Below, one piece after another: positions 14,136-19,996 of a stretch of DNA of 64,000 nucleotides; position 1 is the stretch's first letter; every line of letters begins with the position of its first letter. Where the stretch lies: the NCBI GenBank assembly GCA_963849325.1, contig CAWKHF010000007.1, forward strand, positions 224,001 to 288,000, in the 5' to 3' direction. The stretch comes from an uncultured Planctomycetota bacterium. GTDB lineage: Bacteria > Planctomycetota > Planctomycetia > Gemmatales > Gemmataceae. Position numbers and translations under genes: made by a program. The notes beneath the pieces were generated by a model, which was not told the DNA's origin, searched no databases, and saw only the letters and a list, made by a program, of their open reading frames with translations.

Positions 14136-15641
14136 GAATGGCGTTCGGTTAAGCCGCATCTTCTTGTGGTGGTGACGTTTGATGCAACAATCTCTCGCGC
14201 AGCGCGGCTCGTGGTTGGTTCATCAAGTCGTAGGGTTTGGCCCGACGTTTCTTCACCCGCGGTTCCACGCGACCGGGACGACACGGTACTACCTGCAGCC
14301 GCGGCAATTCTTCGCCATGCCGCGCTTCCCGCAACCAACGCCACGCATCCGCGAAGCTAATACGTTCTGGTTCCACCTCTTGCTGTCGCGCCGCCTCCAC
14401 CATCACCCGACGCACCAGATTATACACCAGCACGAAGACCAACAGTTCCTTCCACACACCTTGCCACGTCTCACAACGCAGCACGTCCATGCGCAAGGTC
14501 TGTTTCAGGTGACGCAGATTGACTTCCACGCCCCAACGCTTCTCGTACAGCCGAGCCAACACCTCCGGCGGATAACGCCGTCGATCCAACAGCGTTGTCA
14601 CCAGGGTCAACTCCCGCACCCGGCAAGTCGGCGTCCGGATCGGCACACGCACCTCACGGACCACCAGCGACGACGGCAAGGATTCATACTCCTGGCTGTC
14701 CATCCAGGCCGGACACTCGGCTGGCTTAACGTACTCGACGAGTTGATCGTCGCGGCCCAGCCGACGCAGCCAGCGCGAGCGGGGCAAGCCCGCTTCTGCC
14801 TTGCGGGGCTGACGGTTCGGCGCTGACGTGCTTCCGCCGCGGCTTGAAGGAGATGATAAGACGCTGATGGGCACGAAAGAGGCTGAAAACGCCTCGTTGG
14901 TGTCGCATCGCCAGGTGAGCATAGGAGCAGAAAGCGCGATCGCCGGCCACCACGTCGCCAGCCCGCAGTCCGCGGTGGGTCCAGGTCAGGTCGGCCAGGT
15001 CGTGCGTCCGTAACGGTCCCGGCATGACGTTGATCAGATAGCCGGTGTAGGCATGAAACTGCACCAGCAGGTGGGCCGTGGGGAAGCCGCAGCCTTGGGC
15101 CTGCTGGCCACTCTGACCGAAGGCGGCATGCAAGTCGGGCGTGTCCGGCATGGAGAAACTGGAACCATCGAGGAAAAAGACGCGATGACCATGCCACAAG
15201 GCGCGTGGGTCGTTGTCGCTGGAGCGGCAGCGGTCGAGGACGGCGACGCCCAGTCGTTGGAAGAAGGGCACGGGCAGGCGTTGTCGGGCCTCGCAGTAGG
15301 ACGAGTCTGCGAAGGAAAGCTTGGCGAGGCGGCGGAGTTCGGAGACCGAGGTGTTCCCTTCGAGGATTTGGCGGATGAACAAGTGGGTGGTGACCAGGGG
15401 AGTCAGCCGACGCTGACGTCCGCCCAGACGGAGCGCTCGTGCGAGGGAATGGATGAGGGGGGCATCGATCCATTGGGCGGTAGCACCCTTGATGCGTTCG
15501 AGGGCTTGCGACATACTAAGCATGGCGGCCTCCTGAGATGATGAGGTCTGGACAACTCCATCATGGCAGGAGGCTGCCGCCTTTCCAAGATCGTCAGAAG
15601 TTCAAGCAGCGAAAGAGGCTACGCTTAACCGAACGCCATTC
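14136..15641 (-). mobile_element. IS4-family insertion sequence, about 1.5 kb
   Basis: Perfect 19-bp IR GAATGGCGTTCGGTTAAGC (14136-14154, 15623-15641); 11-bp direct repeat GTGTCAGGAAC at 14125-14135 and 15642-15652. Confidence 0.95.
14149..15523 (-). CDS. IS4-family DDE transposase (frameshifted around 14800-14910)
   Basis: FLDGSSFSMPDT, VAGDRAFCSY, LVTTLLD, Y..RWGVEVNLRHLK (YREK motif), RVEPRVKKRR. Confidence 0.9.
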
Positions 15642-15765: not shown

Positions 15766-16101
15766 TCATAGGGGCGATAAATCCACGTCTAGTTTCTGCC
15801 CGAGGGCTTCCGCCCATTTGTGCAGCGTTGCCAGCGTAGGGTTCAGCATCTTGCCCGTTTCCAAGCGCGACAGGGCCGACGGGTCGATCCCCATGCGCTC
15901 GGCCACCTCGGCCAGAGTCAGCCCCTGGCTTTCCCGTAGAGCTTTGAACCGCGCCAGCAGCCGCAAAATCGCCGCGAAACTCTGTGGATTGACGGCGCCG
16001 GCGGGCCGTTGGCGGATCGGGTTCGCCGCGTGCTGACGGCGAATGGCTTCTTCCTTGGCCCGCTGCTCGGCGGTGCGCTTGAGCTTAATCGTTGGCTTCA
16101 T
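15766..16101 (-). CDS. XRE-family HTH protein, probable antitoxin
   Basis: LRESQGLTLAEVAERMGIDPSALSRLETG...NPTLATL. Confidence 0.85.
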   Translation of the reverse strand: MKPTIKLKRTAEQRAKEEAIRRQHAANPIRQRPAGAVNPQSFAAILRLLARFKALRESQGLTLAEVAERMGIDPSALSRLETGKMLNPTLATLHKWAEALGQKLDVDLSPL

Positions 16102-16105
16102 GGCT

Positions 16106-16387
16106 TTACTCCCTCGGTTCGGGGACGTCGTAGGCGGTAATCGGTCGGATAACGAGCGGATCGACCAGGTTCAGCACGTCGAATACCACAGCAATAAACC
16201 GGCCTGTATCCGTGCTGCCGGACGCGATGGGACGGCCGGACGAGTCGCTCAGATCGAACGTCGTTTTTTCGTCGTAGAGCACGGACTCAACCTCTTCCGG
16301 CGTCAGGCCATGTTCCGCGATGTAGGCCAGATTGCTGCCCGCGTCATCCGGTTCGTCCCAATCGATCACGGCATCGCGTAAGTCCAT
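16106..16387 (-). CDS. BrnT-like toxin
   Basis: IDWDE...NLAYIAEHGLTPEEVESVL...G.TDTGRFIAVVF...IRPITAY; 4 bp upstream of the HTH gene. Confidence 0.7.
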   Translation of the reverse strand: MDLRDAVIDWDEPDDAGSNLAYIAEHGLTPEEVESVLYDEKTTFDLSDSSGRPIASGSTDTGRFIAVVFDVLNLVDPLVIRPITAYDVPEPRE

Positions 16388-16873
16388 GCCTCACCCCGCC
16401 TCCGCCTTGTATTGTAACACAATTGCATTATAACGCAAGATGGAGGAAGATGCGATCGATCCGTTCCGGGCGATCCGGCACGAGCGGAATATCTCCCGCA
16501 GAGGGATGTGCATTATCCGGCCCCCTTGGTGGCTGTCTAGGGACGCTCTGAGGTAGGTTCCTTCCGCCTCGCCCGAGCCACTGGACCTCGGGCCGACCTG
16601 TCCGTCACCCGCTGCCCTCTGCCTTCCGGAATATCTATCTAACCTGTCGCTTTTTTCTTCCCCCGCGCTGTAACCTCGGCCATCGCGCGGCGTATCAGAG
16701 GCGGCGAAGGGACAAGACAACAACGACAACCCCTTCGCCCAACGCCGCCGGGTGGCGGCACGGTCGGGCGACGGTCGCCTGGCCGACTGTTTCGGCCACG
16801 CATCCCGACCGCCGCCGGACACAACGATCCCGGCACGGTGATGCCGCTTTCTCATCAAGGGAGGTTCGCTACC

Positions 16874-17377
16874 ATGGTTCGCATCAAGACTCGTCTGATC
16901 GCCGTGATGTCCTTGCTGGCCCTGCTCGGCGCCGGCGCCTTCAGCCAGGCCCAGTTCGGCGACATCCCCGCCGGCGGGGACTCCGAGCTGCAGCGCTCTC
17001 TGCAAGACCTCGGCTACCAGTACAAAGTCCTCGACGACGGCTCGATCGTCGTGCTGGTCCCGCGAGAGGACGGCCGTCTGACGCCGGCCCTGATCTCGCC
17101 GCGCAAGGCCACGCCCCAGGGGGCCAACTACCGCATCATCATGGTGCAGGTGGCCGAGTACGACGGCCAACCGCCGGCGGAGGTGACGGCCGGCGTGCAG
17201 CGCATCAACGAGGGGCTGACGATGGGTGTGGTCGGGACCGTGCAGGTCAACGGCAAGACGCTCCTCATCTACGGCACTCCGATGCCGGTCAATCCCTCGG
17301 CCTCGGCGCTGGGCCAGTTCCTGCGGAATGCCGTCCGTCAAGCGAGCCAGGTCAAGCGTACCCTCAACGTCGCCTGA
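16874..17377 (+). CDS. Exported hypothetical protein (YbjN/chaperone-like fold possible)
   Basis: GGAGG SD, signal peptide, strong GC3 coding bias. Confidence 0.7.
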   Translation: MVRIKTRLIAVMSLLALLGAGAFSQAQFGDIPAGGDSELQRSLQDLGYQYKVLDDGSIVVLVPREDGRLTPALISPRKATPQGANYRIIMVQVAEYDGQPPAEVTAGVQRINEGLTMGVVGTVQVNGKTLLIYGTPMPVNPSASALGQFLRNAVRQASQVKRTLNVA

Positions 17378-17610
17378 TCCGGTGCGACCGCATCGCCAGG
17401 AGAAAAGCCGGCCGACCGCCTCCATCCGCGAGGCAGTCGGCCGGCTTTCGTGCTTGAAAAGAGTAGGTCGGACCAAACGAAGGCAAAGGACGTGCCGAGA
17501 CCGTTGCCCCGCCGAAGGTGATCCGTTGGCGCGAGGACCGACACGGTATCCGATTTGCTCCTTTTGTAAGGTGAATCAAGCGGACCCTTAACTGGATGAG
17601 GAGGTCTGTC

Positions 17611-18351
17611 ATGCCTTTTTCCGACCAGAGTTACAACCTGCTCGTCGATGTGGACCTGAAACATTGTCGGCTGCCCGCCGCCGTGTGGAACAAGATGGAA
17701 CTATCCCTCTCGCCGCTGGGCGACATGGTGCGGCACTTCCCGGTATCGAAGCTGCACGTTCTCATCAGCTACCGGCACCGGACCACCGACTACACCGTCC
17801 GCACGAGCCTCGTCCTGCCGGGCGACACCCTCGTCAGCAGCGACCACCACCCGCAGGTCCACGCGGCCTTCGAGCACTGCATCGATAACCTCGTGCGCGA
17901 ACTGCGGCGCTACGAGGACCGGCTCGGCGACGTGACGGAGCAGGCCAAGCAAGCGGAGGGCACCCATCATCAGTTGCTTCCTACCATGCCCCCCGACCTG
18001 GAAGCCATCGATGCGGCTGTCCGTGAGGGCGACTACGCCGCCTTCCGCACCGCCCTGTCCGGCTACGACGAGCCGGTACGGGGCCAGCTGGGCCGCTGGG
18101 TCGAGCGCTACCCCGAGGTGGCCGCCCGCATTGGCAAGGGGCTACAGATCGGCGATCTCGTCGAAGACGTCTTCCTCAATGCCTTCGAGGAGTATGATGA
18201 ACGGCCGCGGGAGGTGCGCTTCGGAGACTGGCTGGGTCGTTACATCGACACGGCGATCAAGGCCATGGCCGGCCACCCGGAGCGCGAGATGGAGAACATC
18301 AACATGGTTCGCCTGGCCCGCGCGGCCGTGACTGGTCCCGGGAGCATCTGA
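17611..18351 (+). CDS. HPF/RaiA (ribosome hibernation) domain fused to ECF sigma factor region 2-like domain
   Basis: GAGGAGG SD. N-half: LVLPGDTLVSSDHHPQVHAAFEHCIDNLVRELRRY. C-half: AVREGDYAAF...DLVEDVFLNAFEEY...RFGDWL. Confidence 0.75.
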   Translation: MPFSDQSYNLLVDVDLKHCRLPAAVWNKMELSLSPLGDMVRHFPVSKLHVLISYRHRTTDYTVRTSLVLPGDTLVSSDHHPQVHAAFEHCIDNLVRELRRYEDRLGDVTEQAKQAEGTHHQLLPTMPPDLEAIDAAVREGDYAAFRTALSGYDEPVRGQLGRWVERYPEVAARIGKGLQIGDLVEDVFLNAFEEYDERPREVRFGDWLGRYIDTAIKAMAGHPEREMENINMVRLARAAVTGPGSI

Positions 18352-18375
18352 CCTGCCGTCGATCCGTACTGCTCC

Positions 18376-18801
18376 GAGCCGGAAGCGTAAGCGAAGGAAT
18401 GGCATCCTCGTTTACGCTCTTTGAAGTTGCGCTGAACGCTCGTATGGTACGCCGTGAGTCAGGCCGGGCGACGCGGTTCCAATGGCACCGCGCGGTAGCG
18501 GCCCGCTGCCGGCCGTATTCGCGGTTGGAGTAGCTGCGCACGCCGGGCAGCCGCGTGCCGGTGACCGGCGCGATGAGCAGGCCGAAGTTAAAGCAATGGC
18601 AGGCATGGCGGTGCGCTTTCTTCTGCCTTCGCAGAGAGCTTCGGCCCCTGGGGATGGAGTTGTTGGCTACGGGTGACGTTATCACCCGCCCCAACCGGCG
18701 GAAAGCGGTCCCTTTTTCTCCACCAACAATACTCAACGAGCGTTCAGCGCAACTTCAAAGAGCGTAAGCGAGGGAATGCCCCTCGCTGACGCTGCGGGCT
18801 C
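18376..18801. repeat. Composite REP-like element with 38-bp inverted arms around about 290 bp of non-coding DNA
   Basis: 18406-18443 and 18736-18773 are reverse complements with 1 mismatch. Confidence 0.85.
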
Positions 18802-18894
18802 CGATGGAACCTCGTTTGCGTTGTCCCGGCCCGTCCTTTGGGTACAATCGCAATACCGCCGGAACGCCACCCGCGAAACCACCCGGAGCGACCC

Positions 18895-19996
18895 GTGAAA
18901 CATCTCGGCCTGTATGTCCTCCTCGGTTGCTGCCTGGCGCAAGCCATTCCGATCGCGCCGGCGGCGGACCCCTTCTCCCTCCTCGACGGCGACCGCGTCG
19001 TCCTCATCGGCAGTACCCTGATCGAACGCGAGCAGCGTTACGGGTACTGGGAGACGGCGCTGACGCGGCGCTATCCCGACAAGTCGATCACCTTTCGCAA
19101 CCTCGGCTGGAGCGGCGACACGGTTTTCGGCGATGCCCGTGCCGGCTTCGGTACGCAGCCTGACGGTTTCCGTCATTTGAAAGATCACGTCCTCGCCCTC
19201 AAGCCGACCGTACTCATCATCGGCTATGGCACGAACGAATCGTTCGAGGGGCCGAAGGGATTGCCGCGCTTCGTTAACGGGCTGGAGACGCTGCTGGATA
19301 CCTTCGCTCCGACCAAGGCGCGCGTTGTACTTCTGTCGCCGCTGAAGCAGGAGGATCTCGGCCGGCCGCTGCCTGACCCGACGGAGAACAACAAGAACCT
19401 GCATCTTTACGCCGATGCCATCCGCGCTGTGGCGAGGAAGCGCGGCCATCTCTTCGTCGATCTGTACACCTTGCTCGGCAACGAGAAGCACCCGTTGACG
19501 GACAACGGCGTTCATCTGACGGCTTGGGGTTACTGGCGCTCCGCCGCTATTCTGGAGCGTGCGCTGGGGTTGCCGGAAACAACTCCGCGCCGAAGAATGG
19601 AAGAAGGTAATCGAGGTGGGCGACCATTCACCGCGGATTCAGGCAACGCTTGTCAGACTGCCTTTTCCGCCACCGCCCAAGGAAGGCGCGCCGCCGGCTT
19701 TCCGCTGGCAAAGTCCACTCGTAACGGTGGAAGGAAGACGGCTGGGTCTCGACCTCGACGTTGCCCAAGCCGAGAAGCTGCGCCAGACCATCATCGCCAA
19801 GAACCGCCTCTATTTCTACCGCTGGCGGCCGGAAAACGAGACCTATCTCTTTGGCTTCCGCAAGCACGAACAGGGCCAGAACGCCCGTGAGATCCCGCAG
19901 TTCGATCCGCTCGTCGCCGCGAAAGAAAAAGAAATCGCCAAGCTGCGCGTGCCCGTGCCCCACACCTACGAACGGAAAACGGACAAGAAGAATTAA
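18895..19996 (+). CDS. Exported SGNH/GDSL hydrolase-like protein (frameshift near 19585)
   Basis: [68 protein letters not shown]. Confidence 0.85.

Follow-up and report, generated by a model that had tools for sequence, protein, structure and literature searches.

What might a ribosome hibernation factor do with part of a sigma factor? The question is raised by a gene in a stretch of 64,000 nucleotides (nt; hereafter the window, in which all unlabeled nucleotide positions are given) from an uncultured planctomycete of the Gemmataceae (assembly GCA_963849325.1, contig CAWKHF010000007.1, positions 224,001 to 288,000 of the forward strand). The gene encodes P0001, a protein of 246 amino acids (aa) in which a hibernation-promoting factor (HPF/RaiA) domain is followed by a domain derived from region 2 (sigma2) of a sigma factor of the extracytoplasmic function (ECF) type. 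Judged by its sequence, P0001 is a member of the chimeric HPF–ECF sigma class and stands in a branch of that class without sigma region 4. The features of the gene are collected in Table 1.

Homology of the two halves and the absence of region 4

An HPF domain had been proposed for residues ~10–105 of P0001, and the searches agreed with this placement. Pfam Ribosomal_S30AE (PF02482) matched residues 16–105 with 33.0 bits (cut-off 23.7), and it was matched at E ≤ 1 by all 41 members of the close-family alignment (A1). Family profiles reached the HPFs of the PDB with E-values down to 7e-10. The AlphaFold2 (AF2) model of P0001 had a predicted local distance difference test (pLDDT) value of 80, and its N-terminal elements followed the order E-H-H-E-E-E-H, beta-alpha-beta-beta-beta-alpha. 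Foldseek placed the N-terminal half on Listeria HPF with a template modeling score (TMt) of 0.83 and a root mean square deviation (rmsd) of 2.1; the top HPFs came from Listeria, Thermus, E. coli and Vibrio (TMt up to 0.86, rmsd ~2). A VIA-align search of 48,161 chains yielded Z values of 10.0–13.8 for 16 HPF/pY/RaiA entries, and the best non-HPF match was a Dicer-like double-stranded RNA-binding domain (dsRBD) at Z 8.4. Helix 2 of the domain was basic across the family (median +2.5).

The second half, which the original prediction had assigned to ECF sigma region 2 at residues ~125–225, was recovered by profile comparison. The wide family was represented by 52 full-length sequences (A2). In a scan of 401 Planctomycetota genomes, the C-terminal part of A2 alone matched a 201-aa open reading frame (ORF), P0271, which is a complete ECF sigma by Pfam (Sigma70_r2, r4_2 and Sigma70_ECF) and adjoins a Ser/Thr kinase gene. 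The hhalign comparison of A2 with P0271 gave Prob 97.4 and E 1.5e-11 over 85 columns, pairing P0001 131–222 with residues 7–94 of the ECF sigma. This Sigma70_ECF type beside a kinase was the closest free relative of the sigma2 domain of the fusion. An ECF sigma of the same type, followed directly by a Ser/Thr kinase gene, was seen in two unrelated loci (L026 2..1463, minus strand; L035 5920–8369, plus strand).

When a profile restricted to the sigma2 domain (A5; 25 sequences from the window and related loci, long forms included) was compared with the PDB, the eight best of 15 matches were ECF sigmas with E-values of 5.9e-5 to 9.7e-3. CnrH (5.9e-5) and an engineered sigmaE region 2 (2.1e-4) were among them, as were SigL, SigG1 and sigmaE. 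Pfam Sigma70_r2 was matched at E ≤ 1 by 15 of the 41 A1 members (best 1.9e-4). The model of the sigma2 domain alone reached pLDDT 88.4 and a predicted template modeling score (pTM) of 0.77. Its Foldseek rows were almost all sigma factors, with sigmaE region 2 first (probability 1.00, TMt 0.68–0.73). VIA-align over model residues ~126–225 returned AlgU, sigmaE region 2, SigW, BldN, ShbA, SigC, CnrH, RpoS and SigG1 with Z 7.0–8.2. Protein Atlas look-alikes of residues 123–246 fell in planctomycetal sigma-70 region 2/ECF clusters at 0.87–0.88, under the 0.9 line, and serve as a lead only. The fold scores are weak alone; taken with the profile results, they establish, at the level of sequence and predicted fold, that the C-terminal half is homologous to ECF sigma region 2. 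The HHpred/Foldseek-type comparison proposed for each half, carried out here with Pfam, hhalign, PDB profiles and Foldseek, matched both halves to their assigned folds.

The claim that P0001 has no region 4 helix-turn-helix (HTH) also stood. Pfam found no region 4 in the protein, which ends 24 residues after the sigma2 domain. For a region-4 hidden Markov model (HMM), we took the final 115 residues of each of 14 long relatives. This HMM recognized three additional long forms that belong to the same order as the window's genome (E 6e-18 to 3e-22). In all frames of the window it found nothing better than E 0.09, and it found nothing in 18352–18838, the interval from the stop codon to the following gene. 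As region 4 is present neither in the protein nor 3' of the stop, the gene is not a split one. Five short forms were likewise without a match (E > 0.1). The dimerization domain of long HPFs was also absent from P0001, with no such Pfam match at E ≤ 10.

The 246-aa architecture was kept throughout a deep clade. In a set of 5.8 billion proteins, 164 homologues were found at E ≤ 1e-3; most of the 120 listed were exactly 246 aa long, and among the matches listed, the named ones carried the labels RaiA or "Gemmataceae bacterium". An exhaustive search of 1.84 billion representatives at 50% identity gave 212 clusters at E ≤ 1e-3, 129 at ≤ 1e-10 and 42 at ≤ 1e-30. Down to 20–21% identity, the rows of A2 were of constant length and retained both halves. 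Of 10 distant members looked up by cluster, a single organism name was obtained, "Planctomycetes/Planctomycetota bacterium". A search with A2 for longer homologues (476–2000 aa) returned none, which is weak evidence. A single-protein search of genome contigs returned one related locus, in a Gemmataceae metagenome-assembled genome (74% identity).

A survey of the architecture across Planctomycetota, as had been suggested, was made by scanning the 401 genomes with A2. Seventy matched at E ≤ 1e-5, and 22 of these, the window's genome included, matched over both domains by our reading of the scan output. Most of the 21 fusion ORFs from other Planctomycetota were long forms. Sigma70_r4_2 was matched at E ≤ 0.01 in 17 of them, 15 of these above the Pfam cut-off. 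The complete ORFs with region 4 spanned ~325–550 aa by our start calls, most of them 325–370 aa. The remaining four comprised two that end right after sigma2 (in genomes G351 and G261), one of 267 aa without a Pfam family (L027), and one at a contig edge. The distribution was patchy. Within the genus, the short form was present in six of 10 other genomes at 71–74% identity, and in two of the six, both assemblies of few contigs, the gene is divided between frames; a seventh offered only a 28% match, lying in an open frame of 383 aa. Among 14 genomes from the family's other genera, one had a match (41% identity), and in the sister family of the same order two of 15 did, both long forms.

A long relative was also found outside the phylum. 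A tblastn search of plasmids returned P0272, a 383-aa "sigma factor-like HTH DNA-binding protein" on the Paraburkholderia phenoliruptrix plasmid NC_018696.1, with Ribosomal_S30AE and Sigma70_r4_2 by Pfam. The hhalign comparison of A2 with P0272 gave Prob 98.2 and E 3.9e-14 over 180 columns spanning both halves. Its gene lies inside an Hsp20/GroES/GroEL/DnaK cluster (L034, NC_018696.1 106801–115286).

A quick maximum-likelihood tree was calculated from 73 rows and 243 columns; it is unrooted, and the region-4 columns, present in less than half of the rows, were dropped. One branch separated 55 short from 18 long proteins with a Shimodaira–Hasegawa-like approximate likelihood ratio test (SH-aLRT) value of 99. 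The short forms lack region 4 and make up a separate clade that is old and diversified. ECF sigmas carry both regions, which makes one ancient loss of region 4 the simpler explanation, the direction being inferred.

We then compared the sigma residues kept and lost in this family. The acidic region-2.2 helix was the best-conserved part of the sigma2 domain, and it aligned with the D..QE stretch of the sigmaE chain, which we take to be the face by which a sigma contacts the beta' subunit. The domain as a whole had a median net charge of -7.5, and an insert of ~6–8 residues relative to ECF sigmas followed its first helices. The helix that faces the -10 DNA in sigma factors was acidic in this family (positions 209 and 213). 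For the residue mapping, the family Trp was aligned with sigmaE residue 73, from which an ungapped count puts sigmaE 80 at P0001 214. The comparison rests on the W73 and N80 equivalents, the F64 equivalent being without a reliable mapping. In sigmaE, W73 and F64 are reported as the pocket residues for the flipped -10 bases, and N80 was proposed as a possible unwinding wedge, its N80A variant forming the open complex about half as fast (PMC6648896). ECF sigma2 domains are described as binding the beta' coiled-coil by conserved electrostatic and polar contacts (PMC6411747, PMC6648896).

Table 1. Features of the P0001 gene, its neighbors, and sigma2 positions of interest (x/52, alignment A2, unless another alignment is named).
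Feature	Window position	Strand	P0001 residue(s)	Remarks
Split IS4-type DDE transposase	14149–15523	-		over two overlapping frames (257 + 265 aa)
BrnT-like toxin ORF, then XRE/HTH_3 antitoxin-like ORF	15766–16387	-		93 aa (Pfam E 8e-6, under cut-off), then 111 aa
Sigma54-type -24/-12 promoter-like element	17545..17558	+		GG ... TTGC, canonical spacing; 52 nt 5' of ATG
Shine-Dalgarno GGAGG	17600–17604	+		6 nt before ATG; GAGGA core kept in the 8-locus alignment
Coding sequence of P0001	17611..18351	+		uninterrupted ORF, 246 aa plus TGA stop
HPF/RaiA (Ribosomal_S30AE) domain	17638..17925	+	~10–105	Pfam, PDB profile, Foldseek, VIA
Linker	17926..17994	+	~106–128	predicted disordered, pLDDT <50 at 107–119 (AF2)
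ECF sigma region-2-derived domain	17995..18276	+	~129–222	hhalign, PDB profile, fold matches
C-terminal helix/tail, short-form specific	18277..18348	+	223–246	predicted helix 223–241
GDSL hydrolase ORF	18838–19996	+		350 aa, Pfam on residues 64–233 only; overlaps a 145-aa ORF in another frame
Region-2.2 helix			182 (D182)	D or E in 49/52
Region-2.2 helix			185 (E185)	E or D in 52/52
Region-2.2 helix			186 (E186)	E in 36/52
Region-2.2 helix			191	A in 51/52
Region-2.2 helix			192	F in 49/52
Loop before Trp			199	Pro in 23/25 (A5); conserved Arg/Lys precedes; not seen in free ECF sigma P0271
Equivalent of sigmaE W73			207	W in 50/52
Same helix as 214			209	Glu in 40/52
Equivalent of sigmaE R76			210	variable
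Same helix as 214			213	Asp in 39/52
Equivalent of sigmaE N80			214	Thr in P0001; Pro 35/52, Asn 1/52; Asn 0/41 in A1 and 0/25 in A5 (long forms included)

A candidate sigma54 promoter and the surroundings of the gene

The reading frame and its translation signal were as first described, an uninterrupted ORF behind a strong Shine-Dalgarno sequence. The start at 17611 and the GAGGA core were invariant in all eight aligned loci of the genus. An alternative ATG at 17596 would add five residues, and the homologues begin at the same residue as the 17611 start. In the linker, K113, G117, T118, P124, P128 and D129 were at least 90% conserved in A1, and in the wide family the linker was only moderately conserved; in the tail, which had no family match, the same level was reached in A1 by E226, E228, N229 and R234.

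Upstream of the gene, the 234-nt region was poorly conserved among the eight genus loci except for one block. At 17544–17558, these loci share CGGTA, two pyrimidines, C, G or C, and ATTTGC, with 12 of 15 columns invariant. The sigma54 consensus of the -24/-12 type is TGGCAC-N5-TTGC. The motif GGTAT-N4-TTTGC occurred seven times in the whole genome, as compared with two for the reversed control, and all seven sites lay 19–111 nt (to the first listed start codon) 5' of a correctly oriented ORF. An rpoN gene is present in the genome (196.6 bits). Among 18 more distant fusion genes, GGYAY-N5-TTGC was found within 300 nt upstream of three, namely the short form of G351 and two long forms with Hsp20 neighbors; a back-of-envelope estimate with equal base frequencies puts the expectation at ~0.005 per locus. 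From this pattern, the P0001 gene probably lies behind a sigma54-dependent promoter. A consensus scan found no sigma70-like site 5' of the gene and no terminator 3' of it, and Rfam at E ≤ 1 gave zero matches, hence no known leader RNA, over 16300–19000.

Elsewhere in the genome, the motif stands before a nirB-like gene, before two genes for small secreted Gly/Tyr-rich proteins and before one for a Tat-signal protein (L050, L052, L055, L056). The genes behind it may form a small sigma54 regulon, as far as the motif tells. Two of the three Hsp20-adjacent planctomycete long-form loci have GGCAC-N5-TTGC upstream.

In the window, the gene is preceded by the split transposase, the BrnT-like/XRE pair and a 179-aa secreted protein without a family, and it is followed by the GDSL hydrolase and a 1157-aa DUF7133/HEAT/cytochrome c protein. 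The BrnT-like/XRE ORFs are a probable type II toxin–antitoxin pair. The transposase is either a frameshifted copy or the site of another assembly indel, and the overlap at the GDSL hydrolase may be another frame break.

A tblastn comparison of six window neighbors with 10 related loci showed that only the fusion gene itself recurs. Pfam annotation of 139 flanking ORFs from 22 related loci gave variable contexts, with HlyD in two loci and an isoamylase-like family in three. Divergently oriented Hsp20 genes adjoin long-form fusions in three planctomycete genomes (L044, L045, L046), and a tandem Usp gene lies beside the G351 short form (one locus); we count these neighbors as a stress link for a role in hibernation. 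A gene with an RF-1 domain of the peptidyl-tRNA hydrolase type is convergent to the long-form fusion in L013 (2547–3605, minus strand) and L018 (2756–3250, minus strand). Seven same-strand ORFs just 3' of long-form genes were considered as a conserved partner and rejected. They were 18–22% identical, did not align with one another and were Arg/Gly/Pro-rich, which marks them as artefacts of open frames in GC-rich DNA. Pfam matches to eRF1, baeRF or Host_attach were absent from the window neighbors and from the 139 flanking ORFs (E ≤ 1e-5). PF10116 (Balon) was not found in the window's genome, which is 84.7% complete; the other baeRF families were not searched genome-wide.

Two other HPF-family matches were found in this genome, a short hpf beside a ptsN-like gene (L002) and a 157-aa HPF-like ORF (L003). 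The latter (L003 1351..1824, minus strand, on contig C11; Pfam 26.4 bits) has an acidic Ser/Pro-rich tail unlike the long-HPF or sigma-like domain. The frames of hpf and the ptsN-like gene switch repeatedly (L002, C10:194895–198083). The essential rpoB and rpoC are broken too (L058, C1:337277–341278) in this 14-contig assembly. We therefore ascribe the breaks to assembly indel errors and do not take hpf, broken as it is, for a pseudogene.

Possible roles of the protein

We see about an even chance that P0001 is an accessory, non-canonical hibernation factor under sigma54 control, in which the sigma2 remnant docks a protein partner. The three functional ideas of the original prediction, a bridge between ribosome and RNA polymerase, a sigma decoy and a substitute for the dimerization domain of long HPF, are each compatible with the results and are weighed below. 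The HPF domain would sit in the 30S decoding region, in the manner of HPF/RaiA, and would block translation; such a ribosome-binding hibernation role is fairly likely from the domain assignment. The remnant would act as a docking module through its acidic region-2.2 helix, the face used for the beta' clamp helices and covered by anti-sigmas. Transcription of the gene would require sigma54 and an activator, which would confine synthesis of the protein to a specific stress or nutrient signal. The available text of a recent preprint states that chimeric HPFs coexist with canonical HPF (bioRxiv 10.1101/2025.11.04.686544); the hpf/ptsN-like locus matches this, and we count it in favor of the accessory role.

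The sigma half itself is very probably not a working sigma factor, to judge from its residues. The lack of region 4, the lost melting Asn and the acidic DNA-facing helix all indicate that it is not a transcription initiation factor. The opposite view, a split or minimal sigma that uses region 2 alone or takes region 4 from another protein, could appeal to the retained pocket Trp and to the family-specific Arg/Lys-Pro in the specificity-loop region. It would also need a region 4 that appears neither downstream nor elsewhere in the window, and no conserved neighbor is able to supply one; we regard it as very improbable.

For the docking partner, beta' of RNA polymerase (RNAP) is the leading candidate, because that sigma face binds beta' in every sigma factor; as the actual partner, RNAP is possible but doubtful on these grounds. 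If the beta' coiled-coil of the RNAP core were bound, the polymerase would be parked or silenced together with idle ribosomes, or sigma factors would be competed against. In its most complete version, a "hibernating expressome", the HPF domain would lock the idle ribosome while the sigma2 remnant held core RNAP by the beta' clamp helices and kept it from sigmas, with sigma54 and a dedicated activator as the switch. Since a large clade does without region 4, the sigma half of the entire class would then have served originally for core binding rather than promoter recognition. We judge this full version unlikely. A complex prediction for the sigma2-like domain (A5) and residues 242–365 of the genome's own beta' gave no answer (score 0.00, mark 0.32) and counts neither way.

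Several points weigh against the accessory-factor proposal and its parts. No member of the HPF–sigma class was found to be characterized experimentally in the literature searched. On P0001 alone, Pfam Sigma70_r2 remained below threshold (13.2 bits, E 0.082, cut-off 24), so the sigma call could not be confirmed from the single sequence and the profile comparisons decide. VIA Z values of ~8 are in the range reachable by chance for helical domains, and the Foldseek E-values for the sigma2-domain model were all >1e-3. The acidic helix might be conserved for folding or for contact with something else than RNAP, and the unconserved gene neighbors name no partner. The -24 box of the upstream element, GGTAT, departs from GGCAC of the consensus. 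The HPF domain is divergent, only 12–19% identical to solved HPFs by Foldseek. P0001 misses the NCBIfam equivalog TIGR00741 (18.8 bits, cut-off 40.9), the net charge of its HPF domain is near zero (0 in P0001, family median +2), and helix 1 is non-basic (family median -1). With such divergence and charge, ribosome binding is not assured, although the net charge is not decisive as evidence on this point.

The missed equivalog, the near-neutral charge and the non-basic helix 1 would also fit an HPF fold that no longer binds ribosomes and is reused for another ligand, in an RNAP-associated or RNA-binding regulator. The fold does resemble dsRBDs (VIA Z 6.2–8.4 to Dicer, Staufen and others). HPF structures nevertheless scored clearly above these, Pfam HPF was over its cut-off with every close member matching, and helix 2 is basic. 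Such a reuse appears quite improbable.

Two further alternatives concern what the sigma2-derived domain would bind. The sigma2 face in contact with beta' is also the one that anti-sigmas bind. The remnant might hence be a mimic or decoy for an anti-sigma, similar to PhyR, with the ribosome state sensed by the HPF domain freeing or restraining a real ECF sigma. Region 4 of three long relatives exceeded the Pfam PhyR_sigma-like cut-off of 27 (L008, 28.2 bits; L011, 30.7; L017, 36.0), and the absence of the melting Asn from A5 fits a non-initiating module. However, class I anti-sigma domains clamp both sigma2 and sigma4, whereas the short form has sigma2 only; PhyR-type mimics have a receiver domain that P0001 lacks, and no anti-sigma-like gene was conserved beside the fusion in the related loci examined. 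A decoy of this kind is improbable. Self-association is the other alternative, by which the domain would replace the dimerization domain and pair HPF-bound ribosomes into 100S-like particles. Sigma2 domains are not known to dimerize, none of our results, which include no homodimer prediction, points to self-association, and the strongly acidic surface would disfavor self-pairing without a bridging partner. In favor of pairing, the domain stands in the place of the long-HPF C-terminal domain after a flexible linker, and chimeras in the preprint, in its available text, carry other domains instead of the dimerization domain (bioRxiv 10.1101/2025.11.04.686544). We consider it as poor a prospect as the reuse of the HPF fold.

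For the accessory-factor proposal, the deep and conserved region-2-only clade argues that the sigma half is not for reading promoters, which constrains the whole HPF–sigma class. The question narrows to whether this half binds the RNAP core or, by the same face, a different protein. RNAP binding, if true, would provide a direct molecular link between translation shutdown and transcription shutdown. The conserved sigma54-type element suggests a condition-specific switch and offers a handle for finding the inducing signal.

Comparison with known systems

Short HPF/RaiA proteins (YfiA, pY) share the fold and Pfam family of the N-terminal half of P0001. In contrast to P0001, they have ~95–120 aa and no second domain, and their identity to it is only 8–19%. 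For residues 10–110, no PDB entries match better in sequence and fold than long HPFs (S. aureus, B. subtilis, Listeria; PDB 5nd8, 5njt, 8uu4), and these have the same layout, in which a flexible linker joins an HPF domain to a C-terminal domain. The C-terminal domain of P0001 is, however, sigma2-derived and not a dimerization domain, and its gene lies outside the hpf/rpoN/ptsN context.

ECF sigmas (E. coli sigmaE, P0271) align with P0001 131–222 from their N-terminal helices through region 2, and the acidic region-2.2 helix and the W73-equivalent Trp are kept in the P0001 family. P0001 differs from them in the absent region 4, the replaced N80 equivalent, the acidic DNA-facing helix and the insert. 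The sigma-like domain of PhyR offers a functional analogy only, as a sigma-derived module that would act, like the proposed remnant, by protein binding and not by initiation. PhyR combines a receiver domain with sigma2-like and sigma4-like parts, and the Pfam PhyR_sigma-like matches in our set fall on region 4 of the long relatives, not on P0001.

The closest known system is the chimeric HPF–SigE class. The available text of bioRxiv 10.1101/2025.11.04.686544 describes chimeric HPF isoforms without the dimerization domain, fused to Csp, SigE or CBS, names a SigE–HPF fusion on plasmid pEc78, and states that chimeras often adjoin Balon genes. In this text, the sigma chimeras are not the subject of any experiment and a variant lacking region 4 is not mentioned; the figures and supplements of the preprint may show more. 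A baeRF-1/HPF neighborhood, not a sigma fusion, is described in the available text of PMC6514570. The original prediction knew of no characterized protein with this architecture, which holds for experimental characterization; the architecture itself was already known computationally from the preprint. P0001 shares with this class and with P0272 the order of an HPF domain and an ECF-sigma module, aligned over both domains, and with P0272 the conserved Arg/Lys-Pro of the loop that precedes the Trp, common to the P0001 family. As stated for the chimeras in the preprint, a canonical hpf lies elsewhere in the genome. Unlike them, the P0001 clade lacks region 4 and has its own short C-terminal helix, and P0001 has no Balon-type or Hsp20 neighbor, Balon adjacency being frequent and not universal in the class. 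What this analysis adds to the original prediction is the placement in a branch without region 4, within a fusion class that has already been described computationally, the loss of promoter-melting features and the sigma54-type element.

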